A DNA stretch of 64,000 bases. Origin: Ruditapes philippinarum. Lineage: Eukaryota. Position numbers and translations under genes: made by a program. This document shows, piece after piece, positions 1 to 36,925 of this stretch. The notes under the pieces were generated by a model. It saw only the letters and a list, made by a program, of their open reading frames with translations, was not told the DNA's origin and searched no databases. Each line of letters starts with the position of its first letter. The first letter of the stretch is position 1. The stretch is from NCBI RefSeq assembly GCF_026571515.1, contig NW_026851649.1:1-64000 (forward strand), read 5' to 3'.

Positions 1-107
1 AATATAACATTTTTAAAAGCAAAAAATTCTTAAAGAGGAGATAACTCTTGAATTAAAGATGCAATTTCATAAAAAAATTTCAGCTCTTTTTGACTAATCA
101 CAAATAA

Positions 108-795
108 TGTTATATTTGCCATGTTTTAAGCCTATTTGTTGCCAACGCAACCAATATTTTTTCAAAATAGGGAGAACAGATAAGACATGCATAATCTCAA
201 GACTGCCATCTACCCATATGTCAAGTTTCATAAAAATATTTCCAGTACTTTTTGAGTTATCACTGGATTCAGTGTATGTGTAAAATTTGCCATATTTTCA
301 GTCTATGTGTTGCCATAGCAACCAGAATTTTCAACATAGGAAGAAAAGAAAAAGACGTGCATAATCTCCAGACTGCCATCTACCCATATTACAAGTTTCA
401 TAAAAATATTTCTATTACTTTTTGCGTTAACACAGGATCCAGTTTATATGTAAAATTTGCCATATTTTCAGTTTATTTGTTGCCATAGCAACCAGAATTT
501 TCAACATAGGAAGAAAAGAAAAAGACGTGCATAATCTCCAGACTGCCATCTACCCATATTTCAAGTTTCATAAAAATATTTCCAGTACTTTTTGCGTTAT
601 CACTGGATCCAGTTTACGTGTAAAATTTGCCATATTTTAAGCCTATTTGTTGCCATAGCAACCAGAAAGCAACCAGAATTTCTACATAGGATGAAAAAAA
701 AAGACGTGCATAATCTCCATACTGCCATCTATCCATATATCAAGTTTCATAAAAATATTTTCAGTACTTTTCAAGTTATTGCGGGATCCAGTTTT
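108..795. repeat. Tandem satellite array, ~170-bp monomer x4 (first monomer degenerate)
   Basis: Direct repetition with period 170 read in the sequence. Each monomer contains the palindromic core TGTTGCCATAGCAACCAGAAT. Confidence 0.85.
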
Positions 796-796
796 G

Positions 797-872
797 TGGA
801 CGGACGGACTGACGGACTGACAGACAGACGGACGGACGGACAGACGGACAGACAGACAGACGGACGGAGGGT
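797..872. repeat. (GGAC[G/A]GAC)n tetranucleotide-derived microsatellite
   Basis: GGACGGACGGACTGACGGACTGACAGACAGACGGACGGACGGACAGACGGACAGACAGACAGACGGACGGA read directly. Confidence 0.9.
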
Positions 873-1446
873 AAACCTAAAGTCCCCTCCGGTAAACCGG
901 TAGGGGACTAATAAAAAGACTGCTCCACTCAGTGAAAATTACCTTTATTATAAATTACAAAGGATATTTATAGAAATTTTCCTGAGTTTTTTGAGTTGAT
1001 GATTAGTGTATTAAATTGAAAAGTTTATGATTCATTTCACTCATCAGGGGATAAGCTGCTTTAAAGAGAACAGTTTGAGAATGATCTTGCAAGGTTTATA
1101 TTTGTCAATTCTTAAAATGCAGAAATTTAAAGTATGAAAACTTTACGACTTTTCATATCATACATGTATATATAACAGAATTTTATGGACCTGGGTGTTT
1201 CCACCTTTTTTAAAGGAAATATTTTAGGTCACCATGCAAACATTAAAGATGTCAAGTAAAATATTAAGTTAAATTTGATATGCCTATGTATTTATCAAGG
1301 AAATTATATTTAAGGACAGTTAAAAAAATTGGTTTTAAAAAGTCATGTTTGTTTGCGAGTCAGGTAATTATGTGATATACCGTAACTTAATTTTAGTTGG
1401 TCAGGCTTTCCTTGATAACTTAGATCAGTAATTTTACCAATTTCTC

Positions 1447-3135
1447 TGTGAGCGACCAATTATAAACAAGAGGGCCATGATGGCCCTAGATCGCTCACCT
1501 GAATTATCAAACTCATCCAAACAATTACCTAGACAAGCATTCTGACCAAGTCTCATGACAGGTGAGTCAAAAATGTGACCACTACAGTGTTAACAAGGAT
1601 TATCCATATTTGAGCAGTGCGACCTAGTTTTTTACCCAGGTGACACATATTCAAACTTGACCTAGAAATCATCAAAACAAACTTTCAGACCAATTTCCAG
1701 GATACTTGGATCAAAATAGTAGCAACTAGAGTGTTAACAAGATTTTTCTATTTTTAGCTCCGGTGACCTAGTTTCACATGCGATTTCGAACTCATCCAAG
1801 CAATTACCTAGACAAACATCCTGACCAAGTTTGATGATAATTGAGTCGAAAATGTGACCACTAGAATGTTAACAAGGTTTTTCCATATTTGGGCGGTGTG
1901 ACCTAGTTTTTCATCCAAGATGACCCATGTTCGATCTTGACTTAGAAATCATCAAAACAAACTTTCAGACCAATTAACAGAATATTTGGATCACAACAGT
2001 AGCCACTAGAGTGTTAACAAGATTTTTTCTATTTTTAGCTCCTGTGACCTAGTTTTTCATCCGAAATGTCCCATGTTCGATTTATTCCCAGCAATGACCT
2101 AGACAAGTTTCCTGACCAAGTTTGATGACAATTGAGTCAAAATTGTGACCACTAGAGTGTTAACAAGGTTTTTCTATTTTTAGCTCCTGTGACCTAGTTT
2201 TTCATCCGAGATGACCCATGTTTCGAACTCATCCGAGCTATCACCTAGACAAGCATCTTGATCAAGTTTGATGATGATTGATGCAAAAATGTGACCGCTA
2301 AAGTGTTAACAAGGTTTTTCTATTTTTTAGCTCTGGTGACCTACTTTTTCATCCGAGATGACCCATGTTCGAACTCATCCAAGCTATCAACTAGATAAGC
2401 ATCCTGACCAAGTTTGATGATGATTGATGCAAAAATGTGACCACTAGAGTGTTCACAAGGTTTTTTCTATTTATAGCTCCGGTGACCTAGTTTTTCATCC
2501 GAGATGACCCATATTCGAACTCATCCGAGCTATTATCTAAACAAGCATCCTGACAAAGTTTGATGATGATTGGGTCAAAAATGTGACCACTAGAGTGTTC
2601 ACAAGGTTTTTCTATTTTTAGCTCCTGTGACCTAGTTTTTCATCAGAGATGACCCATGTTCGAACTCATCCAAGCAATTGACTAGACAAGCATTCTGACC
2701 AAGTTTGATGATGATTGGTTCAAAAATGTGACCACTAGAGTGTTCACAAGGTTTTTCTATTTATAGCTCCTGTGACCTACTTTTTCATCCGAGATGACCC
2801 ATGTTCGAACTCATCCAAGCTATCACCTAGACAAACATCCTGACCAAGTTTGATGATGATTGGGTCAAAAATGTGACCTCTAGAGTGTTCACAAGGTTTT
2901 TCTATTTTTAGCTCTTGTGACCTAGTTTTTCATCCGAGATGACCCATGTTCGAACTCATCCGAGCTTTCAACTAGATAAGCATCCTGACCAAGTTTGATG
3001 ATGATTGAGGCAAAAATGCGACCGCTAGAGTGTTCACAAGTAATTGTGGACGGCCGGACGGACGACGGACGACGGACGACGGACATTCACCGATCCTAAA
3101 AGCTCACCCTGAGCAAGCTCAGGTGAGCTAAAAAA
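1447..3135. mobile_element. Family-B satellite-carrying non-autonomous element, copy 1 (Helentron/HINE-like candidate)
   Basis: The 5' end CAAGAGGGCCATGATGGCCCTAGATCGCTCACCTG matches the 5' end of the second copy at 26161. It is followed by an internal tandem array and a (GGACGGAC/GACGGAC)n microsatellite at 3047-3085. The 3' end is the hairpin AGCTCACCCTGAGCAAGCTCAGGTGAGCT plus an A-run, matching 27424-27438. Confidence 0.6.
1700..3045. repeat. Tandem array, ~146-bp monomer (about 9 copies), preceded by a ~300-bp higher-order variant
   Basis: Marker GTGACCACTAGAGTGTT recurs at about 1848, 2149, 2291, 2437, 2583, 2729, 2873 and 3019. That gives spacing 301, 142, 146, 146, 146, 144 and 146. 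Confidence 0.85.
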
Positions 3136-3578
3136 CAATATGTTAATTTCTATATTTAAGTTTGAAAGATTACAATGTATACCAAAATATAAACAAAGTT
3201 ACTATGATTTATCATAATTATGTTATTACAGCATTCTTACATATAGTTCCCAAAGCAACTTTCAAATATTATTCTTACAAAGTAGGTTATTAAATGGCAT
3301 ATGTTTGAATGATTTGATACACAATAACTTATAAATTTGAGTTTTTTTTTGTTTGTTTGTTTGTTTGTTTTTTTTTCTTCCAGGATTAATTTTCAAACGT
3401 CATTATCAGACCCCTCAGGCAATATGTATATTTAAGTTTTGAAGGGGCCTTATACACATTGCTACATATCTGATCTATTCAGCTACAGGTCTTTTATGTT
3501 GGGTGTATATTTCCATTTTTTCTTATTGTATAGATTTGAAGGGAATGCTTCAATTGTTGAAGATATTACTCAAACAAA

Positions 3579-4481
3579 ATGGTACGAGACAGACTGAAAG
3601 AGTTACAGGAAAAACATGAACAATTTTGCAAGAATGACAACCACCAGACAGAAGGAGGTAAAATTGTCGCACGTTATTCAAACTCTGAAATACAACTTGA
3701 CTTATGTCTCCATAAAGTGACACAAATAAGTAAAAAGATAATCGCAATAACAAATGACGTAGAACATTTAGAGCACCTGCAAAAAGACATCATAGCAAAT
3801 CCATTATTAGATCACAACGAAGTTGTGCGGCTCGAAAGATCGTCTGATGTAATATTCAATACATCGGCTGCGATACAGAAAGAAATAAGTGAATATCGAG
3901 CAGAGGTGGTTCAGATGCAGATGCAAAAGTCTCACGAAATTGTGATTAAGAATCATCTAAACAAATTAGAAAGTGATTTAACAAAAGCGAGAAATGATTT
4001 CAGAGCGGCACAAGTAGATTATATAGAAAAGACCCAAAAATTACATCAGAGGGAGTACGACATAATGACAGGACATGATGATGATCACCATGACGACCAT
4101 GACAAAACCCACTCCCCATTACCTGCAGAGTTCCTAGGTGATTATTTTGTCCAGGCCGAGGATGCAAAAGCAGAACTACGTGAAATCAAGGCTAGAGATA
4201 AGCAGATAAAGAAAGTTGAAGAAAGCGTGATTCAAGTGAATCAACTATTTAAAGAAGTTAATAGTTTATTAAAAGAGCAAGGGGAAAAAATTGATACCAT
4301 AGAGAAACATGTGGAGAACAGTGTGGACTATGTGCAGGAAGCAAATGTTGGATTAAAGCAAGCAAAGAAATACCAGAAAATTACGAGGAAACATAAAATA
4401 TATTGTGTGGGTGTTTTAGTGGCTATATTAGCCGTTACTGTACTTCTTGTTGTCATAGTGATTACTTCTCAAACAGATTAA
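3579..4481 (+). CDS. Syntaxin-1-like Qa-SNARE (t-SNARE), complete and intronless, 300 aa, C-terminal TM anchor
   Basis: The N-terminus MVRDRLKELQ resembles syntaxin-1 MKDRTQELR. The SNARE motif IKARDKQIKKVEESVIQVNQLFKEVNSLLKEQGEKIDTIEKHVENSVDYVQEANVGLKQAKKYQKITRKHKI aligns with syntaxin-1A [72 protein letters not shown]. A hydrophobic tail IYCVGVLVAILAVTVLLVVIVI precedes the stop. The whole protein sits in one ORF. A (GTTT)n run and a TTCTTCCAG acceptor-like site lie upstream (3330-3385), so a 5'UTR intron is possible. Confidence 0.85.
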   Translation: MVRDRLKELQEKHEQFCKNDNHQTEGGKIVARYSNSEIQLDLCLHKVTQISKKIIAITNDVEHLEHLQKDIIANPLLDHNEVVRLERSSDVIFNTSAAIQKEISEYRAEVVQMQMQKSHEIVIKNHLNKLESDLTKARNDFRAAQVDYIEKTQKLHQREYDIMTGHDDDHHDDHDKTHSPLPAEFLGDYFVQAEDAKAELREIKARDKQIKKVEESVIQVNQLFKEVNSLLKEQGEKIDTIEKHVENSVDYVQEANVGLKQAKKYQKITRKHKIYCVGVLVAILAVTVLLVVIVITSQTD

Positions 4482-4639
4482 ATTAACCGATAGATAGCAA
4501 ATATGTGTTTGAACATAAATTATTAAACAAAAAGAAGTGTAAACAAGCAATTATCATAGTATTGCAAGCAATCCATAAGTCCCCTACCGGTTATAACCCC
4601 ATCAACATTCTGAAGGGCCATTTATTGGAAAAGTTCTTT

Positions 4640-5635
4640 AAAAGTGATCACAGGAAACAGTTTTTATGAACAGACAGACAGACGGACTGAAGGACACTCT
4701 AAGTTAATATTTGAAACATCCCTGTTACCAAAATATAACATTATTAAAAGCAAAATTCTTAAAGAGGAGATAACTCTTGAATTAAAGATGCAATTTCATA
4801 AAAAATTTCAGCTCTTTTTGACTTATCACAAATATTGTTATATTTGCCATGATTTAAGCCTATTTGTTGCCAAGGCAACCAATATTTTTTCAATATAGGA
4901 AGAACAGATAAGACATGCATAATCTCAAGACTGCCATCTACCCATAAGTCAAGTTTCATAAAAATATTTCCAGTACTTTTTGAGTTATCACTGGATTCAG
5001 TTTATGTGTAAAATTTGCCATATTTTCAGTCTATGTGTTGCCATAGCAACCAGAATTTTCAACATAGGAAGAAAAGAAAAAGACGTGCATAATCTCCAGA
5101 CTGCCATCTACCCATGTAAAAAAGTTTCATAAAAATATTTCTATTACTTTTTGCGTTAACTCTGGATCCAGTTTATGTGTAAAATTTGCCATATTTTCAG
5201 TCTATTTGTTGCCATAACAACCAGAATTTTCAACATAGGAAGAAAAGAAAAAGACGTGCATAATCTCCATACTGCCATCTATCTATATATCAAGTTTCAT
5301 AAAAATATTTTCAGTACTTTTCAAGTTATCGCGGGATCCAGTTTTGTGGACGGACGGACTGACGGACAGACAGACAGACAGACGGACATCCGGCCGAAAT
5401 GGAATAAGGGGCCATTTCATTTGTTATTTTCTATTGTTTAATAAAGGGCCAATGGCCCCTTACTCTATTGTTAGGGAATGAACTCTATTGTTAGGGAATG
5501 AACTCTATTGTTCTCTTTTGTTCTGTTTACAGTTAGATTGCCCCCTTTCCTTATTCGGTAATGCGGACAGACAGACGGACGGAGGGTAAACCTTAAGTCC
5601 CCTCCGGTAAACCGGTAGGGGACTAATAAAGTACA
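4640..5635. mobile_element. Family-A satellite-carrying element, copy 2 (direct repeat of 1-915)
   Basis: 4730-5010 aligns base-for-base with 3-290. Three ~170-bp monomers run 4838-5340. A microsatellite at 5340-5390 is interrupted by a 170-bp insert carrying 3x GAATGAACTCTATTGTTAGGG (5466-5530) and resumes at 5565-5585. The terminal hairpin AGTCCCCTCCGGTAAACCGGTAGGGGACT lies at 5596-5624. Confidence 0.6.
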
Positions 5636-6272
5636 AACCAACTTGATTTTGATTTCTTTTTTTAAGGTTAAATCAAGTAATCAATAAATACTATAAATGC
5701 AACCTTATAGAAGATATTATTCGCATTTATCATCAGTTTTCAAGAAAAGTCATATGTAACTTATTAAGTTGAGCTGTTTGGAGGAAATCTTCCATTCTTT
5801 TATTATTTTTTTTTGAAAAATTCTAAAGATAAAACTGTCAAGTTTTAGCAACTAGTTTTAGTTTTTAGCAAAATACAAAGCCTTTATTTAGCCTCTTTAT
5901 CATGCAAAACTAAATTAACAAGAGTCATTTATTTCATTTGACTTATCCCATGCATGAATCATGTTGTTTTTGTTTTTTTTAAGTTAAACACAGTTAACAA
6001 TTAACACCCCTCCAAACAAGGAACATGTGCTTTGAAAATTTAACACTCTTAATAATATATTTGAGCTGCGCCATGACAAAACCAACATAGTGCGTTTGCG
6101 CAGCGCAGTCTGATCAGAATCCATGCTGTTTGCAATCAATTTCTCTACTTGTAATAGGGTTTGTAAGCAAACAGCATGGATCCAGCACAGATGCGCAGGG
6201 TGGTCTGGATCCATGCTGGTTGAAAACGCAATATGTTGGTTTTGTGATGGCGTGGCTCAATTATGTACTCAC

Positions 6273-6413
6273 TATTTCTAGAGTTTCAACATCCCCTTTT
6301 ATATCCTCAATAAACTCAGACAGAGTATTGTATATGTCCTCTGCCTGAACCATAGAGCAACTTTCCTGAATCTCACCTCTCTTAATAATATCTTTCACTA
6401 TAGCTATTGGGTC
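6273..6413 (-). CDS. Probable further 3' exon of the same gene
   Basis: Acceptor is TATGTTTTCAG|GAC and donor is GAAATA|GTGAGT. The exon is 141 bp, phase 0. Translation DPIAIVKDIIKRGEIQESCSMVQAEDIYNTLSEFIEDIKGDVETLEI. Confidence 0.4.
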
Positions 6414-6726
6414 CTGAAAACATAATAACACATATAATCATGAAGATGAATATAAATAAGCTCATTAAAAAGTCTTTATTATCATATTCTAAAATCATGA
6501 AAAGTTTAAATAAATTTTATTCTGTAGTGTTTTTAATCTGCTATAAAAACAAAATATCTATAATGGAATATTTAGCATCAGTCATGTTCTAATTGTAAAA
6601 CAGTTCAAGACCCTTTAGAATCAAATAAATTTTCTACATATAGGTCTTACAAAAATGTTGTTTTATCACTGAAAACAGTAAAATAATGCAACCTGAAGTG
6701 AATGTTTTAACTAATTTTTTGTATAC

Positions 6727-6837
6727 CTCATCTTTATCTTCAACACCTGGTTTCCAGCTTATGTATGGTAAAATGTCCACTGTTTCCTTCTCAATGAGAT
6801 CAGCTATGGAAGGAATTATGGAAACATCATGTTCATC
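6727..6837 (-). CDS. Probable further 3' exon of the same gene
   Basis: Acceptor is TTACTATTTTCAG|GAT and donor is GATGAG|GTATAC. The exon is 111 bp, phase 0. Translation DEHDVSIIPSIADLIEKETVDILPYISWKPGVEDKDE. Confidence 0.45.
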
Positions 6838-7639
6838 CTGAAAATAGTAACCAAGACATTTAATTACCAAGCTTAATTTGTACTATTACTCCAGATACAT
6901 ATAGTAGAGTTCTATATGACTAAAAGCCTTAGATAATAACAGTGTTCCCCTTTAAAAGTTCTGTTAAAGGGATTCCACTGAGGGTGTTTTTTTGACGATA
7001 TTGAAAATCATTTCTCTAGAATCTATTTGATGTAGGTCTATACTAATCAATAGGGATGGCAACGAATACCAAAATCAATACTCGAGTACTCGGTCATTTT
7101 TCCGATCGAGTACTCGGTTACTCGGATGATTTCCAATGATCTCACGATATCAACACCGTCTGCATGCTACTTTCGTTTTCTATTTTAATTCATAGAATTC
7201 GTAACTATAAATAGGACTGCAAGAAATACATATATAAATATAAACATAAGAAATGTCAATGGCAACATTTATTATATACCTTCAAATTTTCTCCCTAAAA
7301 TACAGGATGAACTTGAAGCGCAAATACGCTTCAACGGATAGAAAATTCCGTATTATGGTTAGTGACAAATACGGTACGATATATGGAAGTGCCGGACTAT
7401 TTTTGACGTTGGTTCCGATCTTAGCTGTGTATAAACGTAGCATTTGGAAACGGAAACCAAAATTATAAAAGGCGTGTACGGTTTTGCAAAATTACGTATT
7501 CATCCGTTGGTCATAAATTTATTTCTCGACAGCTACATTTCATTTTCTGAAACTTCTTATAGAAGTGAAGTTTAATGAAAATCATTTATAATTCAAACGA
7601 AAAGGTATATAACAAGAGCTGTCAGAAGGACAGCGCGCT

Positions 7640-8530
7640 CGACTTTTTTAGTGCTTGCCTATAAAACAAAACTTTGACAGTTAAGGGCACACAAGACTTT
7701 AACTAGGAATTTCTAAGTACAAATCAAGAAACATTTTCACAGAGTTATCTTCTCTTGCTTACAGATAGGTCTCATGATGGCACATAAGAACTCCAACTTC
7801 CAAAGTAATATCTCAAATGGTTAAGTCAACAAGTGGACAAGAATGAAAATCTTAACTGAGTTTCTAAGTCAAAAAGGGCCATAATTCAAATAAAATCCTT
7901 AACAGAATTACCTTCTCCTGCCCATGTTTTGGGACCATGATGGTAAACAAGTATTCCAACTTTCAAATTAATATCTCAAACAGTTCAGTCAAAAAGTGGA
8001 CTGGTACTAAAAACTTAACCAAGATTCTAAGTCGATAAAAGGCCTTAATTTTTAAAACAAATCCTTGACAGAGTTACCTTCTCTTGCGTACAGATGGGGG
8101 TAATGATGTGAAATAGCATTAAAAGTTTCAAAGCAATATCTCAAAGGGTTAAGGCAATAAGTGGATTTTACCCATATTCAATGTATTTTCTAAGTCAAAA
8201 AGGGGCATAATTCTGTCAAAAACCTTGACAGAGTTATGTCCTCTTGTCTGTTGATGAAGGTCGTGATGGTAAACAAGTATGGTCAGTTTCAAAGCAATAC
8301 CTCCAATGGTTTTGAAATAAAGTGAGGTGGTACAAAAAACTTAACCAAGCTCAATACACTTTCTAAGTCAAAAAAGGGCCATAATTCTGTCAAAAACCTT
8401 GACAGAGTTATGTACTCTTGTCTGTAGATGGAGGTTATGATGGTGAACAAGTATGGTAAGTTTCAAAGCCATACTTGTAATACTTCTGAAATAAAGTGGG
8501 GTGGTACGAAAAACTTAACCAAGGTGTGAC
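7640..8530. repeat. Internal tandem array of the hAT element, ~166-bp monomer (about 5 copies)
   Basis: Marker CTAAGTC(A/G)A(A/T)AAAGGGCC recurs at about 7865, 8029, 8190 and 8362. Confidence 0.8.
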
Positions 8531-8534
8531 GCCA

Positions 8535-8572
8535 ACGCCGACGCTAACGCCGACGCCGACGCCGGGGCGAGT
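8535..8572. repeat. (GACGCC)n-like hexanucleotide microsatellite
   Basis: GACGCCAACGCCGACGCTAACGCCGACGCCGACGCC read directly. Confidence 0.85.
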
Positions 8573-9461
8573 AGGATAGCTCCCCTTTTCATAGAAAAGT
8601 CGAGCTAATAAAAGGACAAATATGTTGTAGCCTATGCATTTTTCTACTCGCAATGTTGGAAAATTGATATTTCGCTCGACCTTCGGTCTCGTAAGATATC
8701 AATTTTTCCACCACGTTTATACAATTAACAAGTTTCGGCTACAAACTGTCTAATAGTTAAAGGTGGTTAAATATCATAAGAGGCCGAATGACGTAAACGA
8801 CACAGGACTGGGTTCAATCCCATACGCGTGTCAAAATGCTGATCGCATCGTTAAACTTACGATATCATATTCACACCTCTGGAAGGATGTTTTGATTGCA
8901 CTTAACAAGTATTTATACAATAGATACGTGTACATTTCCGAATTTCTGAACTAATCTTTCTAAATGGCAAAAAAAAGTAGAAATTATTAATTTTTTTTTT
9001 CGAGTAATCGAATATCAATTTTGTTAACCGATATTCGGACATTCGATCGAGTACTCGGTTAATCGGTTACTCGTTGCCATCCCTACTAATCAAATAATTT
9101 CTGTGCAAAATTTCAGATCATTCCCTCACTCAGCTTTCCAGAATATATATTCTATTTGTGAAGATTGACCCAAGTTTGAGAACTGTTTCAATGCTTTTCA
9201 CTCAATTTTGGCTATGAATAGCACTAAAATATGATTCCTTGTTTATTTCTGAGTATATTTCTTAATTATCTTTTGCATTTAAGTGCCCAAGCTGATCTAT
9301 GTAAGAAATTCAAACTTTATGTTTTGACATATTTGGGATTCAGTGGAGTTACTTTAAATGTAAAAACGTCAAACAATAATAATCAGAATAATAATCTTAA
9401 TATTTGACAGAGTTCAAAACACATGGTAGTTTAAAGAAATTGTGTTTTCACACAATATTAC

Positions 9462-9563
9462 CTGATGCCTGTCCTCTATTGCCACAAAGCTGGTGTATGG
9501 AGTCACTATACTGTGTTTCTTACTCAAGTCAATGATGTACTGTTTCCTCTCATTTTTGATCAC
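9462..9563 (-). CDS. PARP4-like exon (C-terminal region)
   Basis: Acceptor is CACTTACTAG|GTG and donor is CATCAG|GTAATA. The exon is 102 bp. Translation VIKNERKQYIIDLSKKHSIVTPYTSFVAIEDRHQ. The VTPYTSFVAIED motif resembles the VTPLTSMV segment conserved after the VWA domain in the ITIH/VWA5A family. Confidence 0.6.
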
Positions 9564-10115: not shown

Positions 10116-10196
10116 CTGATGTTTGATCCTGTCATCGTCCAGGGTTCCATTCTCATAGTCTGTAATCACTGCCCTAGCTGTTAACTGATGTAACAT
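10116..10196 (-). CDS. PARP4-like exon (C-terminal region; acceptor ambiguous between 10196 and 10184)
   Basis: Donor is CATCAG|GTAAAT. Translation ...LTARAVITDYENGTLDDDRIKHQ. Confidence 0.45.
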
Positions 10197-16882: not shown

Positions 16883-16918
16883 CTATCAATATATAAAAGA
16901 TATAGAGAATAATAGGTT

Positions 16919-17924: not shown

Positions 17925-18610
17925 TCATTTACACCATGCCATATAGCTTTACCCCATGCCAAAAAGCTTTATATCATACCATATTTCCCTACACCATTCC
18001 ATATAGCTTTACATTATGCCATACAGCTTTACACTATACCATATTGCTTTACACTATGCCATATAGCTTTACACTATGCCATACAGCTTTACACCATGCC
18101 ATATAGCTTTACACTATGCCATATAGCTTTACCCATACCATGTAGCTTTACACCACGCCATATAGCTTAACACCATGTCATATAGCTTTACTCCATGCCA
18201 TATAGTTTTACTCCATGCCATATAGCTTTACACCATATAGCTTTACTCCATGCCATATAGCTTTACACTATGCCATATAGCTTTACTCCATACCATGTAG
18301 CTTTACACCATGCCATATAGCTTAACACTATGTCATATAGCTTTACTCCATGCCATATAGTTTTACTCCATGCCATATAGCTTCACACAATATAGCTTTA
18401 CTCCATGCCATTGCCATTTAGCTTTATCCCATGCCATACAGTCCATGTCATATTTCTTCATATCATGCCATATTTCTTTATCCCTTGCCATATAACTGTA
18501 CACCATGCCATATAGCTTAATCCCATGCCATATTGCTTTATCCCATGTCATATAGCCCATGCCATATTTCTTAATATCATGCCATATTTCTTTTAACCAT
18601 GCCATGTAAC
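17925..18610. repeat. 21-bp minisatellite, consensus CATGCCATATAGCTTTACAC(C/T), about 32 copies
   Basis: Direct tandem repetition, period 21. The periodicity produces the spurious ORFs 17895-18170, 17912-18106 and 18363-18605. Confidence 0.9.
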
Positions 18611-18766
18611 CTTACATGAGTTAAGAGGGTTTGCACACATCACATTATTTCTTAATAATTAATTATGACCAAAACTTTATACTTTTGCATACTGAAAGAC
18701 AAGAATGTATCCTGCATAAAAATAATTCAGATAATGATTTTTATGGTAATATAATAATATACAAAC

Positions 18767-18897
18767 CTTGGCCACCATGTCCATCATTTTTCCTCTGATA
18801 TGTACACTTTTAAGAGGGATATGTTCCTTCTTGTTACCTTGTAATCCTGCTTTAACCTTGGCAAGAGGATCTTGAACATCTTTAATATCTGAGATAT
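18767..18897 (-). CDS. PARP4-like exon: linker into the VIT domain
   Basis: Acceptor is CCTTTTAG|AT and donor is GCCAAG|GTTTGT. Translation (D)ISDIKDVQDPLAKVKAGLQGNKKEHIPLKSVHIRGKMMDMVAK. HIPLKS matches human VWA5A PVPLKS. The phase fits both neighbouring exons. Confidence 0.6.
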
Positions 18898-19437
18898 CTA
18901 AAAGGGAAATAACCTATGTGTTTCTTCTAAAATTATGCAATACAAATACATCTTAATGTGAAATCTTCTGAAATGTATGGGTAACAATCTCGTTTTACTT
19001 AAAATTTAGATAATCTTACTTTTGTATCACCGAAACAATCTGAGATTATGTAAAAATGAAACAATCTACATAAACTGAATAATCTGAAATTATCTAAAAT
19101 GAAGTTTGATTCTTTGTGTGAATCTAATATATGCAAATTAGGTTTCTACTGTATTTCCCGCCATTTACAAGTGAAATTTACAACAAAAGAAGTTTGATAT
19201 ATATATTTATATGAATGTTGTAAAGTCTACTATATGAATGTTGATAAGTCTACTTAGTTACTAGACAATGGAAACGTTCATTCTCCAACTAATGTTAACT
19301 GGATATTTTGTGCTTAAAACTTTTGTTCATGTACCATGATATTGTATATTCAATATGCTATACAAATATATGTTGTAAAGACTATGTACTAAACGTCAAT
19401 AAATCATTTATCTATCTATAATAATGAATTCACTTAC

Positions 19438-19621
19438 CAATATCAGTATTTGAAGAAGTCTGAGGTTGAGTGTCCTGATTTGTGACCTCTAAACCTTTCA
19501 GTACCTGTAGATCTCCATCTCTTATAGTTGGGTGTTCTGTAATATTGTCTCCCGGTAGAGAAAACTCAACCAGGTATTTCACACACTGTTGACTTGGGTT
19601 GTATATAACAAATTCATTATC
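19438..19621 (-). CDS. PARP4-like exon: end of catalytic domain (Glu of triad) plus linker
   Basis: Acceptor is TTGTTTTAG|GAT and donor is GATATTG|GTAAGTG. Translation DNEFVIYNPSQQCVKYLVEFSLPG... matches the PARP signature [22 protein letters not shown]. Confidence 0.7.
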
Positions 19622-20317
19622 CTAAAACAAACAATTTTAAGGTTTAAATGGGTATGCTTCCATAAACATGTTGCATAAAATATATCTTCAAGAATCAAAC
19701 TTAAGAAAAATATAATTCTAACTTAAACAAGAGTGTTAATGCAGTGCTAATGCTCTAGTGTAAAAAATCTCAAGTTAAAAAAAATAACTCCAAAAATATT
19801 TTTTCAGAATTATGCGCCTTGTCTTACCACTGCACATTGTCATAATTGTCCTAATAAGAAAATATTCTAAGTTTTATGTAAATAATTTGAAAATTGATAT
19901 AATGGGCTAAATTTATGTTTTTGCAACAAAGACAACAACACCACAGTAATCAAAAGCTCAACATTTCTTTGAAACAGACAAGCTTAAAATGTATAAATAT
20001 TCATATCCCAAGTGAAACTTTGAACCTATGATGAAAAATTACTTATATGGTTTCTATATCACATTATATCCTATACAGTTCTAAAAAGCACTGATCTGAT
20101 TGGCTGATAAGCATTGATGTCACAAGTTTGCAAGACTACTTGTAGACCCCTAAGATATGTAGACTTGATGGTCATTTCCACATATAACTGCAAGCAAGTC
20201 AAAATATCCTGAAATATCCTGAAGTCAAAACTTCCTTGAGTCAAAACATCCCAAAAACACAATGTTTTGACAATATATCATATAAAATAACAGCCAAAAA
20301 CTTATCCTTAATATTAC

Positions 20318-20501
20318 CTCAAATGAGCTCTGGTTGTCATTTGATGATTTCACACCTTGTACACAGTCAAAACCTTCAGGGGCTGATGTAATAGTGAAGT
20401 CAGTCTGGTACATTTTACAACAGTGTCCTAGAGATACGTTACACAGCAACATAAACCTAGTACCAGTCTGGGAATTTGCTGTAGAGTACTGGGAGCTTTT
20501 T
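20318..20501 (-). CDS. PARP4-like exon: catalytic domain
   Basis: Acceptor is TTATTTCAG|A and donor is TTTGAG|GTAATA. Translation KSSQYSTANSQTGTRFMLLCNVSLGHCCKMYQTDFTITSAPEGFDCVQGVKSSNDNQSSFE matches PARP1 [25 protein letters not shown]...VPLGTGISSGVNDTSL. Confidence 0.7.
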
Positions 20502-21117
20502 CTGAAATAATTTTGAAATACACATGTATATTATTTGATTTTTGATGGGTTATATGGCCATAAACAAAAGCTGCCATTAAGACAGCATACTTGACTATTC
20601 TCAGCGCTTGATAGTAAAACAAGACCTAAAAAAGAGTCAAAATTTTAACAAAATCCATGTTAAGAGTTATTGGCCTTAATCAGTGGCCTTCTATAATGCT
20701 CTAAAATAAGCGTGCAAGTTTTTAACCCATCTCTTATAGTAGTTTTGGAGATACAAACTTCACCAAAGATGACGCTGCCACTGACCCTGGGATGAATTCA
20801 ATAGCTCTCCCTATTCTCTGAATAATTGAGCTAAAGCATCTAAAGCATCTATTTCTCTATGGCAACTTCTGCAACAAGTGCTTGAGTAAGACAGTGTGCC
20901 AAGTTAAGAGTATGGACCTTGGTCAGTGACCTCCTATTATACTCTCAAATAAGTGAGTGAAGTTTCAACTCATTCCCTTCAATAGTTAAGGAGATACTAA
21001 ATTGCACACAAAAATTAACAAGAGTGTGATGCAGACAACAAGGCCTTGGTGAGTACAATAGCTCTCCCTATTTTTTAAATTTTATCGAGTTAAAAAGAGA
21101 TATGACTGTAAACTTAC

Positions 21118-21216
21118 CCAGGATTATCTGAGAAGTATATCCCAGCACCAAGGTTTCCAACATCTGTTCTTGCAACACCCATTTTGTCTGCTACCATATT
21201 GGGCATTAATAAACCC
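21118..21216 (-). CDS. PARP4-like exon: catalytic domain (Tyr of triad, GIYFSD)
   Basis: Acceptor is GTTTGTTTACAG|GGG and donor is CCTGG|GTAAGT. Translation (R)GLLMPNMVADKMGVARTDVGNLGAGIYFSDNPG matches PARP1 [29 protein letters not shown]. Phases join the neighbouring exons. Confidence 0.7.
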
Positions 21217-21329
21217 CTGTAAACAAACAATGATTTACTGAAAAAACATATTTCACTACTCTTTATGTACAGGTCAATTATACTACATGTATAACAAAGA
21301 GCCACAAATATCTTCTTTTATGATCCTGC

Positions 21330-21595
21330 ACAAACAGTTTATTATTGGTATTTTTGTTTGTTTTTCTGTTCATAAGGCCAATTTTACATATGTGTGGTCA
21401 TTTTTCAACAAACACCCACCGAACAGGACTTTTCTGGATAACTAACAAGTAGTCAAAAATTTCTCTGCAAGTGACTGACCAATAATCATCCATGATTTCT
21501 GAATCAGCTGTGAGAGACAAATGACTGTTAGACTCAATTGTCACATTGACTTAGGATCCAACAAGCATCCCCATGAATACTAATCAGATGCTCTC
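21330..21595 (+). mobile_element. SINE family S2, copy
   Basis: The body aligns with 15700-15930. Confidence 0.5.
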
Positions 21596-22338
21596 CCTAT
21601 TGAGCTTTTTGATAATAGGTAAAAGCATGAACAATCAAATCGATATTGCTATTCAATCTCCCTCCCTTCGTCTACATTCTAGAATTTTTATATTCAACAA
21701 AGCAGGTGATGCCCCATACTTCACCAGATTTGTGAAATTGTTTTCTCTGGTTTTCTGGATCATTGGTTCCAAATACTTACAGTGTTGACGGGGTGTGAGT
21801 GATTTGCACACTTGCCCCAAAGTTTGGAAATTTGCTAAATGTATTTCAAATGCAGTCTAAAGCTTGTTTCAATAAAAACTGCAACAATAAAGACATTATT
21901 ATTGAATTAATGCATTATAATTAAACATATTACAGCTTAAAGTACATTTAATATACATTTAGCAAATGATTAAACTGAGAGGGAAATGTCGACTTTACAT
22001 TTCCATGGGGGGAGGGCAAAATTTTAATTGATGCATTTTTTTACTGCAGGGAGTGGGTGGGTATCAAGTGTCCTGGAGGGCAAATGTCCCGTATATCTGA
22101 CAATAACTGAATCTTGTAATGAAGAGTTTATAATATCAGAAAACTGATTATTACACTGTCCCCTAACTTGAGCATTATAATGGGTATGCTAGTGGAAAAT
22201 AAAAATTTAGCTTCTATAATTAAAAAAAATTCCTACTGTTTTCTTTCTTAATGGACATCGCACAAGACATAAATTAAAATGGTACTGAATCTAAAACACA
22301 AAATGATAAAATAAAACTGTCTCAAATATTCAGCAAAC

Positions 22339-22634
22339 CTTGACAAAATTCCAAGCATGTTGTGACAGGGTGAAGCATGACTCAGCAGATTTATATTTCC
22401 CACATCCGACATAAAGTTCACCTCTTCCACAGTCCGCCTGACTCTGTATAAACCATGTATCTTTCCTCTATCTTTAGCTAGCTTCTCTTCCAAGATCTTG
22501 TAAATTTCTGCTGAGTCAGCATCAGACTGGTTTACATATTTTATATGACATCCCATGGCTCTGTATTTAGCAATAACTGTAGTATCAGGGGACCAGTCTG
22601 TGGCTTTACTTACAGCAACAATATCTGATAAAAG
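22339..22634 (-). CDS. PARP4-like exon: PARP catalytic domain N-part (His of catalytic triad)
   Basis: Acceptor is GGGTTTTTATTTTGGACAG|CTT and donor is TCAAG|GTTTGC. Translation includes IKYVNQSDADSAEIYKILEEKLAKDRGKIHGLYRVRRTVEEVNFMSDVGNINLLSHASPCHNMLGILS. This matches PARP1 IKVVDRDSEEAEIIRKYV...[20 protein letters not shown]. Confidence 0.7.
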
Positions 22635-23183
22635 CTGTCCAAAATAAAAACCCAAATTATGTCCAGACAGGTCTTGACTGTAAATGATTTTCAATTAACT
22701 GAATTATTTATAACCTAACTTACATGAATAAACTTTAAAGTCACTTCAAAAACATTAAGCTGGAAGAAAAAGTCATCAATTTTGTCCCAAAATGATAAAA
22801 AAAATTTGCATCATAAGTTGCGTTATTGAGTGTTCTAACATTTTTGCATGCACAAAGCGTTTTACACACTATAGCCATAACTGTTTGAGAAAGACTCCAG
22901 GTGTATTTCTACAATTCCACAATATATGTGTAAGGCAATGCCACTCCCAGTTTGTGAGTTTAACAACCACATTATTATAGACAACTTCTTTATTCAACTT
23001 ATCACAAGTTTAAAATGTTAACCTTTTATAAGGGAGGGCCCACACTAATGCTAATATAACTTTCAGCTCAACCCTTTTTTGTATATTGCATAAAAGTACA
23101 CACGGTTAGATAACAAATAAAATATTTTTTTAACTTTCTTGAGACATATGTACATATATTGCATAACAAGACTTAGCTTTTAC

Positions 23184-23360
23184 CTGACAAAGGTCCTGTT
23201 TACCAATGACTTCTCTTAAAGTCCAATCACTTGACTTCTTAAATTGTTCTTTATGAGGCAAAACCTCATAAAATTCTTCTATAAGCTTGTCCATATCATC
23301 ATCATAGTTGCCTAGTAACTTATCCGTTAATTGAGACAGTATCACTTTCGCTTCAATTAT
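23184..23360 (-). CDS. PARP4-like exon: PARP regulatory (helical) domain
   Basis: Acceptor is TCTCTTGTAG|ATA and donor is TGTCAG|GTAAAA. Translation IIEAKVILSQLTDKLLGNYDDDMDKLIEEFYEVLPHKEQFKKSSDWTLREVIGKQDLCQ. The FYEVLPH motif matches PARP1 FYTLIPH. Length 177 bp, phase 0 at both ends. Confidence 0.6.
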
Positions 23361-24689
23361 CTACAAGAGATAAATAACATTTAGAGTTAAAGTGACATTA
23401 TGCCCATCAAAGTGTAAATGAACAGGTAAAATCAAAGTTACTTGACATTTTGCCATAATCGTGTTCAACCTTTTACTTGTCTATAAAAAACGAATTAATA
23501 ATTCAGGTGACCAACTGAAATTACTGTAAATATAGTTCAGAATATATCAGTAATTTTCAATTCTTAAGAGGAGTGCGGCAGTCTTTTTATAAATAAGGTC
23601 ATTTTTATATTTGCATCATAAACATTTTTCATTATCCATCATTGGTCAATCAACATTATAATAGTCATTCTTTTGAAATATATAACTTATATGAATTAAT
23701 AAAACTTATACTTAATTAACTGAAAAACCAGAAAAAAAGCAAAGATTCATACGGAACTCTTAAAATGGCATCATGTTATAAATTTTTCATACGGCAATAT
23801 ACTGACCCCTTAATTTGAATAGTTATGTCCCAAATATAAAAAAAACCCCAGAAATTCATGTCAGGAAAAAGCGTTATCCTAAAGTTGAAATCCCAATTTA
23901 TATTTTCACATTCCAAACCTGTTTCTTAATAATGCAATATATGGTCCCCACAAAAATTTAGGTTTCACCCATATTAAGTTACCCACCCCCCCCACTCCTG
24001 TTTTTTTTGGAACAGGGACCCTGAAAAATATTATCTAGATAAAATCAACCCCTCTATGTATGTAAACCAAAATCTAATCCCACATACTGAACACCCCAGA
24101 TCTTAAAACTCACTCTGCTTATTTATGTAAACCTTTAAAAACTATGAGACCTTTTTGTCTTAAACAAAACCACTTGCAATTCTTTCTCTTTTGGTTCCTT
24201 AAGACTTTGACTGGATCTTAACCAAAAATTTTTCTCTGTAAAAATACTTCTTTAGAGTTTCCAAGATGGATCAACCTCTGTCAGGGCCTCATTCCAGACT
24301 ATTGAAGTGAGTGCTGCCACCTGGGGGGAAATTTCTTCATTCAAGAGAGATAACTTTCCTATTTTCTATAAAGAACAATGAAAACAAACAACAATTAATC
24401 TTTTAAGAAATCTCTTTTTACAAAAGGCTTACTTCTTATTCAATTTTATGGATAGAAAAGTAAGTTATTATTTTTTGTCAAAAATCTGTAGAGAACAATA
24501 TCTCAGAAAAAAACAAAACTTTTAAGAGTTTTTCTTATAGCTTGAATGAGTTTAACAATCAAAGTAGGACAAAGTGAAAAATTACTAACAGCACAAGAAA
24601 GCATTTACTTACTGAAATTGACATTAATTATACAATGTTCGAAAATTGAAATAAAAATTGTACCATTCTTAAAGTAGCAGATCCAAAGT

Positions 24690-24831
24690 CTTGCACATCT
24701 ACTGATCCTGGTTTACAAGGAACCATACACACAGGTTTGTTGGCATATTGTCTATACAACTGCTCATAACCACTCAGTACCTCCGACACCGTCTGAAAGT
24801 ACCAGACTATTGCCTCGTCTATTTTCACCAC
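24690..24831 (-). CDS. PARP4-like exon: BRCT domain C-terminal part (3' boundary uncertain)
   Basis: Acceptor is TATTGTCAG|GTGGTG. Translation VVKIDEAIVWYFQTVSEVLSGYEQLYRQY resembles the human PARP4 BRCT end HVHIANPDFIWKSIREKRLLDVKNYDPY. Confidence 0.35.
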
Positions 24832-26160
24832 CTGACAATACATGTACATTGTATCAGTACAATAAATACAGGATATGGAATGAGTGTAGGTTTAATACTT
24901 AATTTATTGAACAAGTTGAATAAAATCATATTAAGCGAGCCTCAATAAATTTAGTATTGAATCTACACAAATATAATATTCTGTTTATCACATACATAAA
25001 ATAAGAACGGGAAACTGTTAAAAAGAGCCATATTTCATTAAAGGCCAATGGTGTAGCACTAAAATTAGCGCACTTAAATGCTATGTTTATATATAGCGCA
25101 AATGACGTCACGCCAAAGTGTTATTACAATAGTGTAATATCATTTTTATCAAATAACTTTATTACACTCATGTGCTGCGCTTTATGTGATAAAAGGTATT
25201 TTGAAATAAATCTCTTAACACCAATGAAAACATAAGACATGGAAACAATTTTTTTATTATATACAATTTTGGCCAAAATTTTAAGTTAAAAAGGTCAATA
25301 ACTCCAAAAATATTGCTTTTAGAATTATGCCCCTTGTGTTATAACTGAACATTGTCATGTTAAGATAGTATTCCTATTTACGTGTAAATATACTCCCAAA
25401 ATAGAACAATAAAACAAAAGAAAATGGGTTGGGCAACAAGTTCTAACAACTTTTCATTAATCCCTTCCCAGAAATCTTTGTCTTATAAAGGGTGTTGCTA
25501 TACAGAGGCTGTACTTTAGTATCTAATGCAAAAACAACAAATATTTCAAACTAAATAGACTGGTACCTTATTATTGTCAACTTGAGCATTCTGTGCATAT
25601 AACCTGTACCTGAACTGGCAGTCCAGTCTGGTGGCAACATGTACCTCCAATGCTTCCATTTTCTTTGTCTCCTGTGAATACAACATAAGGTAAATGACAG
25701 TCAAAAACAAAATTCATTTTCAGTTGAATACTTTTTTATAGGAATTGATTTTTTTTTAACTTTTAAATACATCAGTAAAAAAAGAAATGTCCATGGACAG
25801 TGCTCTACTTTACTGAGTGCTGGAAAGTTAAATACATTTGTAAAGGCAACATAGAAAAAAGGGTATAACATTGCAACAAGATAATTTTAGGATTATCTGC
25901 CCTTTTGAAACAGTGCCTTTTTATGGCAATAAACATGTACAATGTATACCAAGTTTAAAGTGAATAGCTTTTATAGTTTCTGAGAAAATAGACCTTAATA
26001 AAACAGTCAGACAATGCTGACGCCAATGCCAAAGAGAGGGTTATGACAAATAGCTTCACATTTTTCCCCCGGAAAAGTGGAAATGACAACAGATACCAGA
26101 GTCTTATAAAACCATCTTTGAAATATTCTAAAATAAGTCTATGCAGTAGGACTAACAAAA

Positions 26161-27438
26161 CAAGAGGGCCATGATGGCCCTGAGGTCGCTCACCTGTATA
26201 TAGGCCCCCCGGAGCCGGGCCAGTTTAAATCCAAGGCTTTTATTTGAACAAACTTGGAAGACACCCATTAGAAGATGTTTCATGATGTTAAGTTTTTACT
26301 ACACACATAAAATGAAAAACATTGCCCCCCCCCTCCCCCCCGTTTAAACCCCAGGGCTTTTATTTGAACAAACTTGGTAGACACCCATAAGAAGATGTTT
26401 CATGCTAAACATCTAAGCTCTAGCTCATTGGGTTTTTCAAAAGAAGATTTTTTAAGTTTTTACTATACACATATAGCAAAAAACAATGACACCCCTGGGG
26501 CGGGGCCAGTTTGCACCCCAGGGCTTTTATTTGAACAAACTTTGTACACACTTACTAGAAGATGTTTCATGCTTAATATCTAAACTCTAGCTCTTTGGGT
26601 TCTTTAAAAGAAGATTTTAAGTTTTTGCTACATTGTATACACAAATAAGGAAAATCAATGACCCCCAGGGGCGGGGCCAATTTTGACCCCAGGGCTTTTA
26701 TTTGAACAAACTTTGTAGACACTCACTAGAAGATGTTTCATGCTTAATATCTAAACTCTAGCTATTTTGGTTTTTTAAAAGAAGATTTTTTTAAGTTTTT
26801 GCTATACACATATAAGGAAATCAATCACCCCCGGGGGAGGGCCAATTTTGACACCAGGGCTTTTATTTGAACAAACTTGGTAGACACCCATTAGAACATG
26901 TTTCATGCTAAATATCTTAGCTCTAGCTCTTTGAGTTCTTTAAAAGAAGATTTTTTAAGTTTTTACTATATGCATATAGGGAAAATCATTACCCCCTAGG
27001 GCGGGGCCAATTTTGACCCAAGGGCTTTTATTTGAACAAACCTGGTAGACACTCATTAGAAGATGTTTCATGCTAAATATCTTAGCTCTAGCTCTTTGGG
27101 TTCTTTAAAAGAAAATTTTTTAAGATTTTGACCCCAGGGCTTTAATTTGAACAAACTTTGTACACACTTACTAGAAGATGTTTCATGCCAAGCTCTTTGA
27201 GTTTTTTAAAAGAAGATATTTAAAGTTTTTTTCTTTTGGTTGCCATGGCAACCAGAGTTCTGCATGGAATTAAATTCTTTGAACAATTTTTAAAGGTGAC
27301 CACCAAAGGAACATTCCTGTGAAGTTTGGATGAAACTGGCTAAGTGGTTTATAAGGAGATGTCATTTAAAGTAAAAGTTTACGGACGGACGACGGACGAA
27401 AAGCGATCACAAAAGCTTTGTGACAGGTGAGCTAAAAA
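26161..27438. mobile_element. Family-B satellite-carrying non-autonomous element, copy 2
   Basis: Same 5' end as copy 1 (CAAGAGGGCCATGATGGCCCTGAGGTCGCTCACCTG). It has an internal ~168-bp tandem array, a (GGACGGAC)n stub at 27380-27400 and the 3' end CAGGTGAGCTAAAAA. The 3' region also contains TGGTTGCCATGGCAACCAGAGTTCTGCATGG, related to the family-A monomer core. Confidence 0.6.
26225..27215. repeat. Tandem array, ~168-bp monomer (about 7 copies, two truncated to 120 bp)
   Basis: Marker GGGCTTTTATTTGAACAAAC recurs at 26233, 26353, 26521, 26691, 26859, 27018 and 27138. Confidence 0.85.

Positions 27439-36822: not shown

Positions 36823-36925
<103 letters not shown>

Follow-up and report, generated by a model that had tools for sequence, protein, structure and literature searches.

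HINEs, non-autonomous derivatives of Helentrons, are built in a recurrent order of 5' subterminal inverted repeat (subTIR), complementary inverted repeat (IR), microsatellite, tandem repeats, 3' subTIR and palindrome (PMC4067079; PMC7492417). In the DINE-1/HINE elements of Drosophila, mites and mosquitoes, the subTIRs measure 12-15 bp and the IR lies 3-22 bp from the 5' subTIR (PMC4067079). The motif (GTCY)n is the classic hitchhiker microsatellite of HINE-type elements. Among bivalves, group 2 of the oyster elements Cg_HINE combines related flanks with unrelated repeats, and some of these elements carry two repeat types in a row (PMC7492417). Conserved boxes or palindromes inside the monomers have been reported for the oyster elements (PMC7492417) and for DTC84 of Donax trunculus, and the conserved end boxes of Helitron-N2_CGi as well as N2C_CGi from C. 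gigas are printed by Tunjic-Cvitanic et al. 2021 (Supplementary Table S3; PMC8268682). The stretch analysed here consists of the first 64,000 nucleotides of contig NW_026851649.1 of the venerid clam Ruditapes philippinarum and is called the window. Five elements on its minus strand are very probably copies of three HINE families and thus non-autonomous Helentron derivatives.

These five copies (A1, A2, B1, B2 and C) lie within positions 1-27438. An exhaustive mismatch-tolerant Hamming scan of the 64 kb returned exactly five copies, all in the same orientation. Tandem arrays were called with Tandem Repeats Finder (TRF), and hairpin energies are those of single-stranded DNA folds with z scores against shuffled sequence. 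The published module order starts with the 5' subTIR, the IR and the microsatellite, which therefore places all five elements on the minus strand:

1..917, minus strand: HINE A1 (family A), truncated on its 3' side at position 1 of the window; over 616 bp, its identity to A2 is 95%
1466..3135, minus strand: HINE B1 (family B, 145-bp cargo), complete, 1670 bp; both termini read directly
4544..5630, minus strand: HINE A2 (family A), apparently complete; contains a 177-bp foreign insertion
7612..8613, minus strand: HINE C (third family), complete, 1002 bp
26160..27438, minus strand: HINE B2 (family B, 165-bp cargo), complete, 1279 bp

The occurrence of all five on one strand is weakly unusual for a sample of this size (n=5; 2 x 1/32).

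A first-pass annotation of this DNA had described four copies of two families, each composed of a terminus, a satellite array, a GGAC microsatellite and a hairpin. TRF and motif scans confirmed this composition, and the motifs that it quoted were all present exactly where it had placed them: AGTCCCCTCCGGTAAACCGGTAGGGGACT at 881-909 and 5596-5624, ACAAGAGGGCCATGATGGCCCT at 1466-1487 and 26160-26181, and CGCTCACCTG at 1492-1501 and 26187-26196 with its mirror CAGGTGAGCT at 3120-3129 and 27424-27433. All four elements are real, but the fifth one, family C at 7612-8613, had been missed. Two boundaries had to be moved: B1 starts at 1466 instead of 1447, and A2 reaches to about 4544 instead of 4640, because a perfect inverted 15-mer of its subTIR sits at 4578-4592. 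The 5' and 3' labels had been inverted relative to the published Helentron/HINE convention, as the supposed 3' hairpin is the 5' subTIR with its IR and the supposed 5' palindrome is the 3' terminator ending in CTCTTGT.

On the element strand, the modules follow one another as T-run, 5' subTIR, IR hairpin, (GTCY)n-type microsatellite, a core in B2 only, tandem array, inverted subTIR, palindrome and terminal CTCTTGT. Sequence reading and folds recovered every substructure of a HINE, in the order that has been published. This architecture fits the published HINE/Cg_HINE definition part for part and supports the earlier proposal of Helentron-derived HINEs. The closest match is Cg_HINE (Vojvoda Zeljko et al. 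2020, PMC7492417), in which the module order is identical, the repeats measure 140-180 bp, and the target is likewise T-rich or TT without duplication; the host is an oyster there and a venerid clam here. The oyster-type double repeat is also found in B2, where one monomer of a different type (27225-27381) comes after the 165-bp array.

Modules of the three families

The elements begin with T(n)AGCTC or T(n)AGTCC, and all five copies have a 5' subTIR, whose start lies 5-8 nt behind the initial T of the terminal run. In A1, A2, B1 and B2 the 5' module is followed by a (GTCY)n or (GTCG)n microsatellite, which on the plus strand appears 3' of each A and B array as a GGAC/GACG/AGAC-type repeat. 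The 3' terminus reads CTCTTGT in families B and C and GCTTGT in family A. The end-module pairs of the window families are TTTTTAGCTCACCTGAGC...GGGCCATCATGGCCCTCTTGT, TTTATTAGTCCCCTACCGG...AACCGGTAGGGGACT...GCTTGT and TTATTAGCTCGACTTTTC...GCTGTCCTTCTGACAGCTCTTGT. The 5' and 3' subTIRs are perfectly inverted over 15 nt in A2, 10 nt in B1 and B2, and 11 nt in C, and the pairs co-vary: families A, B and C each have a pair of their own, and within family B the two ends of a copy agree at the tenth base, which is A in B1 and T in B2. The 3' palindromes of B, C and C. gigas Box 2 differ in sequence but are still palindromic between the conserved GAGCG and CTCTTGT. Matched subTIR pairs and structurally kept palindromes are two small signs of constraint.

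Family B provides the direct link to the oyster elements. Its subTIR AGCTCACCTGAGC is identical to C. gigas Box 1 at 13/13 positions, with the IR and TTTT following. In the comparison with Box 2, TCAGGTGAGCGAT is identical at 13/13 positions, the palindrome is present (GGGCCATCATGGCCC in family B versus GGCCCATGGGCC in C. gigas), and the terminal CCTCTTGT is identical. Box 3 aligns to the core of B2, whereas B1 has no Box 3. Families A and C showed no sequence match to Boxes 1-5. B-like 5' modules were also found in a Saccostrea cucullata contig and in a Mytilus galloprovincialis contig, and the 5' module of family A has a closely aligning counterpart in another Mytilus galloprovincialis copy. 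Six words (11-13-mers) taken from the window monomers were absent from 52 C. gigas satellite consensus sequences, the window motifs were not found in the legible Cg_HINE supplements, and a full-text literature search with monomer and terminus sequences returned no relevant paper, the matches being unrelated primers.

The two family B copies of the window have only their ends in common, namely 42 bp at one end and the microsatellite plus the last 15 bp at the other. Their modules are as follows:

3101..3135, minus strand: B1 5' end, with T6 at 3130-3135, subTIR AGCTCACCTGAGC from 3129 to 3117 and IR from 3114 to 3101; fold -10.2 kcal/mol, z -4.55
3048..3085, minus strand: B1 microsatellite (GTCC/GTCG)n, from the TRF span 3057-3084 and sequence reading
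1510..3040, minus strand: B1 central tandem repeats, 145 bp x ~10 (TRF)
1466..1504, minus strand: B1 3' end, with subTIR copy GCTCACCTGA at 1493-1502, palindrome GGGCCATCATGGCCC at 1473-1487 and CTCTTGT at 1466-1472
27407..27438, minus strand: B2 5' end, with T5 at 27434-27438, subTIR AGCTCACCTG from 27433 to 27424 and alternative hairpin TCACAAAGCTTTTGTGA at 27407-27423
27382..27399, minus strand: B2 microsatellite (GTCC/GTCG)n, from sequence reading
27225..27381, minus strand: B2 conserved core adjoining the microsatellite, counterpart of C. gigas Box 3
26348..27224, minus strand: B2 central tandem repeats, 165 bp x ~5 (TRF)
26160..26199, minus strand: B2 3' end, with subTIR copy GCTCACCTGT at 26188-26197, palindrome at 26167-26181 and CTCTTGT at 26160-26166

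Thus, B1 reads on the element strand T6, AGCTCACCTGAGC, TT, GCTCAGGGTGAGCT, (GTCC/GTCG)n, 145-bp array, TTCAGGTGAGCG, ATCTA, GGGCCATCATGGCCC and CTCTTGT. The 3' palindromes fold with -7.5 kcal/mol (z -2.7) in B1 and -8.8 kcal/mol (z -2.8) in B2. The first ~570 bp of the B1 array, the part nearest to the 3' end of the element, are organised in 290-bp dimers. The B2 core is a single monomer of a second repeat type and 80% identical to a unit that is tandemly repeated in the external contig L084; it aligns with Box 3 and with the Mytilus and Saccostrea copies, and its box GTTGCCATGGCAACCAG is common to the family A monomers and several external copies. As a side observation, the 5'-terminal 10-mer of the element, TTTTTAGCTC, occurs in opposite orientation in six B1 monomers, at 1751, 2032, 2177, 2324, 2615 and 2905 on the plus strand. 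A derivation of the B1 monomers from the 5' end of the element was considered on account of this word and rejected, as related 145-bp monomers elsewhere do not contain it; its presence is probably a coincidence.

In family A, self-comparison showed that A1 and A2 remain similar up to positions 915 and 5630, past the hairpin and AATAAA, with the alignment breaking at a nested insertion in A2 (5389-5565):

910-917, minus strand: A1 T-run terminus
881..909, minus strand: A1 hairpin of 5' subTIR (909 to 895) and complementary IR (893 to 881); fold -11.8 kcal/mol, z -4.63
798..868, minus strand: A1 microsatellite, (GTCY)n on the element strand and (GGAC)n on the plus strand; TRF period 4, 17.8 copies
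114..798, minus strand: A1 central tandem repeats, 170 bp x 4.0; TRF, 87% matches
5596..5630, minus strand: A2 5' hairpin at 5596-5624 and TTTATT terminus at 5625-5630; fold -11.8 kcal/mol, z -4.60
5349..5583, minus strand: A2 microsatellite (about 5349-5388 plus 5566-5583; TRF), split by the nested insertion 5389-5565
4842..5348, minus strand: A2 central tandem repeats, 171 bp x 3.0 (TRF)
4544..4592, minus strand: A2 3' end, with subTIR copy at 4578-4592 (exact match) and terminal region ending in GCTTGT at 4544

The family A subTIR is AGTCCCCTACCGG(TT), and 4578-4592 repeats 5610-5624 in inverted orientation without mismatch over 15 nt. Judged from B and C, the exact 3' boundary of A2 would fall at this GCTTGT. 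Every A1 monomer contains the palindromic box GTTGCCATAGCAACCAG. The A2 insertion comprises 177 bp of foreign sequence with AATGGAATAAGGGGCCATT / AATGGCCCCTTACTCTATT as inverted repeat, AAGGGCCAATGGCCCCTT as palindrome and a 20-bp unit repeated 2.5 times; a second copy was absent from the window and from every fetched contig. The 3' part of A2 contains, at 4669-4695, a further short remnant of a GGAC/AGAC microsatellite, followed by ACACTCT. This remnant resembles the microsatellite-plus-spacer of an unrelated element in the metagenome contig L021 and may have been left by an older or chimeric element.

Family C reads on the plus strand ACAAGAG, palindrome, a motif mirrored at the far end, monomers of 163-174 bp, (GACGCC)n, hairpin and AATAAAA:

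8578..8613, minus strand: C 5' end, with TTTTATT at 8607-8613, subTIR AGCTCGACTTTTC from 8606 to 8594 and IR from 8590 to 8578; fold -8.1 kcal/mol, z -4.79
8528..8564, minus strand: C microsatellite, (GACGCC)n on the plus strand and (GGCGTC)n on the element strand; TRF period 6, 6.2 copies
7739..8523, minus strand: C central tandem repeats, 163-174 bp, ~4.5 units; TRF rows 7739-8165 and 8187-8523
7612..7648, minus strand: C 3' end, with subTIR copy GCTCGACTTTT at 7637-7647, palindrome GCTGTC..GACAGC at 7618-7634 and CTCTTGT at 7612-7618

Its 3' subTIR copy is an 11-nt perfect inverted repeat with 8596-8606, and the 3' palindrome folds with -5.5 kcal/mol (z -1.4).

Family B copies outside the window

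The 22-nt terminus of family B was used as an exact-match query for copies in public sequence. It was found in 93 contigs, 87 from metagenomes and six from bacterial assemblies, the latter in a scan of bacterial and archaeal genomes. The latter (L088-L093; NZ_WACP01000036.1, JBEVXV010000203/836/1263/955 and JBEVVR010000144) have a GC content of 35-42% and comprise four Sedimenticola metagenome-assembled genome (MAG) contigs, one Candidatus Thiodiazotropha MAG contig and one Paenibacillus contig of very low coverage. Thiodiazotropha is a symbiont of lucinid clams, and the six contigs therefore look like contaminating DNA of bivalve hosts. A protein encoded on one of the metagenome contigs has named relatives exclusively in bivalves, at 35-51% identity.

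The query did not include the subTIR, but in 78 of the 87 metagenome copies this repeat was present at a constant distance of 5 nt, differing at no more than one position, compared to a chance rate of 0.6%. Sixteen copies, 14 external ones plus B1 and B2, are complete, measure 474-2128 bp and have the same end modules; they contain the T-run, the subTIR, the IR or an alternative hairpin, TTGTGA, the microsatellite and usually the conserved core. The layout of B1 is that of the 14 complete copies from other bivalve DNA. Together with the two window copies, the 87 metagenome copies fall into 81 unrelated clusters of upstream flanks and 24 clusters of interiors, and internal arrays were detected in 23 of the 93 external copies. 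The periods of these arrays cluster at 138-149 and 161-166 bp, which are the size classes of B1 and B2, respectively. Monomers 66-74% identical to those of B1 were found in L073, L077 and L023, and monomers with the same range of identity to those of B2 in L043, L084, L027, L026, L016 and L070. The family B termini are thus not confined to the loci in the window. Its idea of satellite swapping within a conserved chassis is borne out by the 24 interiors behind the same ends, a pattern that had already been described in oyster.

The same contigs bear on how the copies spread. These could be ordinary dispersed satellite arrays carried along by segmental duplication, with the end motifs as part of the duplicated block, and A1 and A2, only 4.7 kb apart, in the same orientation and 95% identical, speak for this. 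However, their similarity stops sharply at the hairpin terminus and their downstream flanks are unrelated, as are the 81 upstream flanks in family B, which leaves this explanation with a vanishingly small probability. At the 3' end, the base next to CTCTTGT is T in 73 of 87 copies and the following base is T in 58 of 87, on a background of 31% T. In the flanks of the complete copies, the longest shared word averaged 4.1 nt versus 4.2 nt in mismatched controls, and a target-site duplication is thus not discernible. The target of family B, as judged from the flanks, would accordingly be T-rich, with TT as the putative dinucleotide. An insertion preference for the junction between A and T, as anticipated by the first-pass annotation, did not emerge from these T-rich flanks without duplication.

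The terminal T-run appears as an A-run on the plus strand, where every copy ends with CTAAAAA or CTAATAAA. The elements could therefore be taken for retroposons similar to short interspersed elements on the plus strand, with the A-run or AATAAA at the right end as a poly(A) tail or signal. Against this, the length of the run is essentially fixed (5 nt in 11 of the 16 complete copies), flanking direct repeats are missing, and the run follows directly on a conserved hairpin, one arm of which recurs, inverted, at the opposite end. Nothing suggests a tRNA, 5S or 7SL head, though none was looked for. A retroposon origin is therefore extremely improbable.

A third explanation has a history in the bivalve literature. 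The elements pearl (CvA/CvE/CvG) of Crassostrea virginica, DTC84 of Donax trunculus and MgE of Mytilus galloprovincialis, here compared by description only, contain up to about six core repeats of ~160 bp, an ACGG/ACTG-type microsatellite at one end of the array and flanking modules with terminal or subterminal inverted repeats, as do the window elements. They were first described as MITEs (miniature inverted-repeat transposable elements) with an AA duplication. According to this reading, the window elements would be tandem-repeat MITEs, i.e., deletion derivatives of DDE cut-and-paste transposons with the inverted repeats as terminal inverted repeats and AA/TT as the target duplication. A 10-15 nt inverted repeat does lie near both ends of each element, and both junction flanks are A/T-rich, a situation that was likewise read as a putative AA duplication in the DTC84 paper. 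However, the ends are asymmetric: 5-8 nt separate the repeat from one terminus but ~26-34 nt from the opposite one, so that it is subterminal, and an IR hairpin with microsatellite at one end faces a palindrome with CTCTTGT at the other. In addition, there is no duplication beyond the T-run of the element itself, and the same structures have been re-assigned to Helentrons with autonomous partners in a mite, Culex and Drosophila (PMC4067079). A MITE nature of the window elements is therefore unlikely.

Taken together, unrelated flanks, absence of duplication and a fixed T-run rule out segmental duplication and argue against both a duplicating transposase and a poly(A) retroposon. Many copies in unrelated contexts are available for family B only. 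Families A and C have relatives only as similar 5' modules (L099, L021); the element in L021 is otherwise different but has the GGTTTACC spacer and microsatellite of family A. The termini of A and C were absent from the viral contigs and bacterial genome contigs scanned, and neither was found in the 87 metagenome contigs with family B.

Probable Helentron affiliation and proposed transposition

The DINE-1/HINE elements resemble the window elements in the microsatellite, the central repeats, the 3' stem-loop, the boundary T-runs (2-5 nt), the TT preference and the lack of target modification (PMC4067079), but have no sequence similarity to them. According to the part of the literature that cites it (Coates et al. 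2011, in PMC3879986), MINE-2 of Lepidoptera has the same (GTCY)n beside one terminal module; these are insect elements and, as far as described there, without sequence relation to the window elements.

Canonical Helitrons share with the window elements a presumed rolling-circle mode, a 3' palindrome near the end and the lack of a target duplication. The five copies might thus be non-autonomous elements of canonical Helitrons rather than of Helentrons, as the Repbase name Helitron-N2_CGi and the class DNA/Helitron of the C. gigas counterparts would imply. Canonical Helitrons, however, have a 5' TC and a 3' CTRR but no subTIRs, and their insertion site lies between A and T (PMC4067079). The window elements have neither of these ends; they begin with T(n)AGCTC or T(n)AGTCC, end with CTCTTGT, have subTIRs and occupy T-rich sites instead of sites between A and T. 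Membership in the canonical group is accordingly a rather remote prospect, slightly more so than a MITE nature.

The autonomous partner of the window elements was sought in several ways. For DINE-1 and mite HINEs, autonomous Helentrons with >95% identical ends are known (PMC4067079), whereas none is known for the window elements. In the window, Pfam matches were limited to SNARE, a PARP catalytic exon, a weak BRCT and reverse transcriptase. A tblastn search of the 93 external contigs with Helentron Rep/helicase motifs (Thomas 2014 supplements, PMC4067079) gave only noise. A protein database search with concatenated motifs led to bivalve PIF1-like and Helitron_like_N proteins, and six of the respective loci (L094-L099) were examined. 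HINE ends occurred in them solely as separate, unrelated neighbouring insertions. An upstream repeat common to two Mytilus copies was considered as an element end and rejected, as it is a separate abundant repeat. Clusters of Helitron-like genes encoding an OTU/Herpes_teg_N protease, DUF6570, Helitron_like_N and PIF1 were observed in L094 (5269-15623), L099 (4176-12054) and L098 (4075-11434); they originate from Mytilus galloprovincialis and an ENA assembly, and no endonuclease gene was called in them. The published oyster study likewise linked no autonomous partner.

Several observations weigh against the assignment of the five elements to HINEs of Helentrons. Neither Rep nor helicase was found in the window by open reading frame (ORF) and Pfam analyses, with the retrotransposon at 32.6-36.3 kb outside the Pfam query, or in the 93 external family B contigs by ORF scans and tblastn, and the Helitron-like gene clusters from Mytilus, Saccostrea, Argopecten and one further assembly are not bounded by the window ends. 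B2 lacks the canonical IR; a small alternative hairpin takes its place with a fold of -4.8 kcal/mol (z -2.15), weaker than in A, B1 and C, and this type of hairpin recurs in the external contigs L012, L047 and L009. The fold of the 3' palindrome of A2 is not significant (z -0.94), and a second independent complete copy of family A or C was not present in the sequence examined. The transposition chemistry is presumed by analogy, and the choice of Helentrons over another rolling-circle lineage would follow from end structure and literature. As no partner has been tied to the ends, Helentron membership is founded on the structure of the ends together with homology to elements so classified.

With the HINE assignment retained, a transposition route can be proposed whose steps we infer from knowledge of the Helitron/Helentron superfamily. 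A Rep/helicase, possibly with an endonuclease, encoded elsewhere would recognise and nick the 5' module in trans. One strand would be displaced in 5' to 3' direction until the process halts at the 3' palindrome and terminal sequence, and the strand would then be re-inserted at a T-rich site without target duplication. Anything between the end modules, here a satellite-like array, would be copied passively, and short arrays would thereby be scattered in gene-rich DNA. The length of the arrays would drift through slippage or unequal exchange, and new cargo might be acquired by end bypass or template switching, resulting in the same ends with unrelated monomers as in B1 versus B2. The cargo is passive and interchangeable.

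Genomic neighbourhood and significance

An intronless syntaxin ORF of 300 aa with a SNARE domain is located at 3579-4481 on the plus strand; with its product, a Ruditapes philippinarum protein shares 96% identity and a Mercenaria protein 70%, which places the window in a venerid clam, R. philippinarum or a close relative, and not in an oyster. The ORF lies between two HINEs, with B1 ending 444 bp upstream of its ATG and A2 ending 63 bp past its stop codon. In plus-strand reading, AATAAA motifs are contributed by the HINE ends. On the minus strand, the loci 20228-20530 and 28325-28675 comprise an exon-like ORF with a PARP catalytic domain (E 1e-9) and a weak BRCT match, which points to a PARP gene of several exons on that strand. 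If this gene is real, B2 (26160-27438) probably lies in one of its introns in gene orientation.

Other repeats of the window are of different types. At 52544-52790, two arrays of a 22-bp unit face each other, CGACAATACGACAGTGCGATGA x ~6 and its reverse complement x 4, and form a foldback of ~250 nt (-84.6 kcal/mol, z -12.9). A 20-bp minisatellite, TTTACACCATGCCATATAGC, extends over 17928-18605 with ~32 copies, 76% matches and nested periodicities of 34 and 54 bp. Remains of non-LTR (long terminal repeat) retrotransposons are present on the minus strand at 32435-36276, 53838-56495 and 58049-60716. Judged from ORFs of 413 aa and 619 aa, the one at 32.6-36.3 kb is a nearly intact long interspersed element (LINE), and the other two copies are degraded; the middle locus contains a Pfam RVT_1 match at 54803-55393. 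In addition, there are a perfect (TA)48 run at 36826-36921 and a T46 run at 60893-60938.

The window elements are species-specific additions to bivalve HINE lineages that have already been described in oysters, mussels and other clams, and the combination of the same ends with different satellites has been published before and is not new. What is modestly new is that the oyster and mussel lineages also exist in a venerid clam, where their end modules are nearly identical. The tiny divergence of these modules among the venerid clam, lucinid-associated contigs, mussel and oysters despite repeated turnover of the cargo is mildly novel. For the annotation of the venerid clam, this means that such arrays are to be labelled as HINE cargo and not as free satellites. 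With five elements in 28 kb, the window is a compact case of rolling-circle transposons scattering satellite arrays into gene-rich DNA.

Similar end modules occur in the venerid clam, in lucinids that host the symbionts represented by MAGs, in mussel and in oysters. The modules that have been kept are the 13-nt subTIR, GAGCG, the palindrome (in structure, not in sequence) and the terminal CTCTTGT, and at least 24 interiors are found behind one identical 22-mer. The deepest splits among living bivalves span ~500 million years. It is conceivable, though the evidence speaks for it only tentatively, that the end modules of family B, and probably those of A, have remained almost unchanged over these splits, through either an ancient Helentron Rep lineage or repeated horizontal transfer. 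If so, one Helentron Rep lineage would have been continuously active for ~500 million years, or transfer among marine bivalves would have occurred repeatedly. As the 145-bp and 165-bp cargo is common to several species, the satellites would therefore travel with the transposon, and both satellite classes (66-74% identity between species) would have been inherited or transferred together with it. The conserved 22-mer retrieves dozens of bivalve copies with differing cargo from public metagenomes and is thus a handle for locating the autonomous partner and for telling vertical descent from horizontal transfer.

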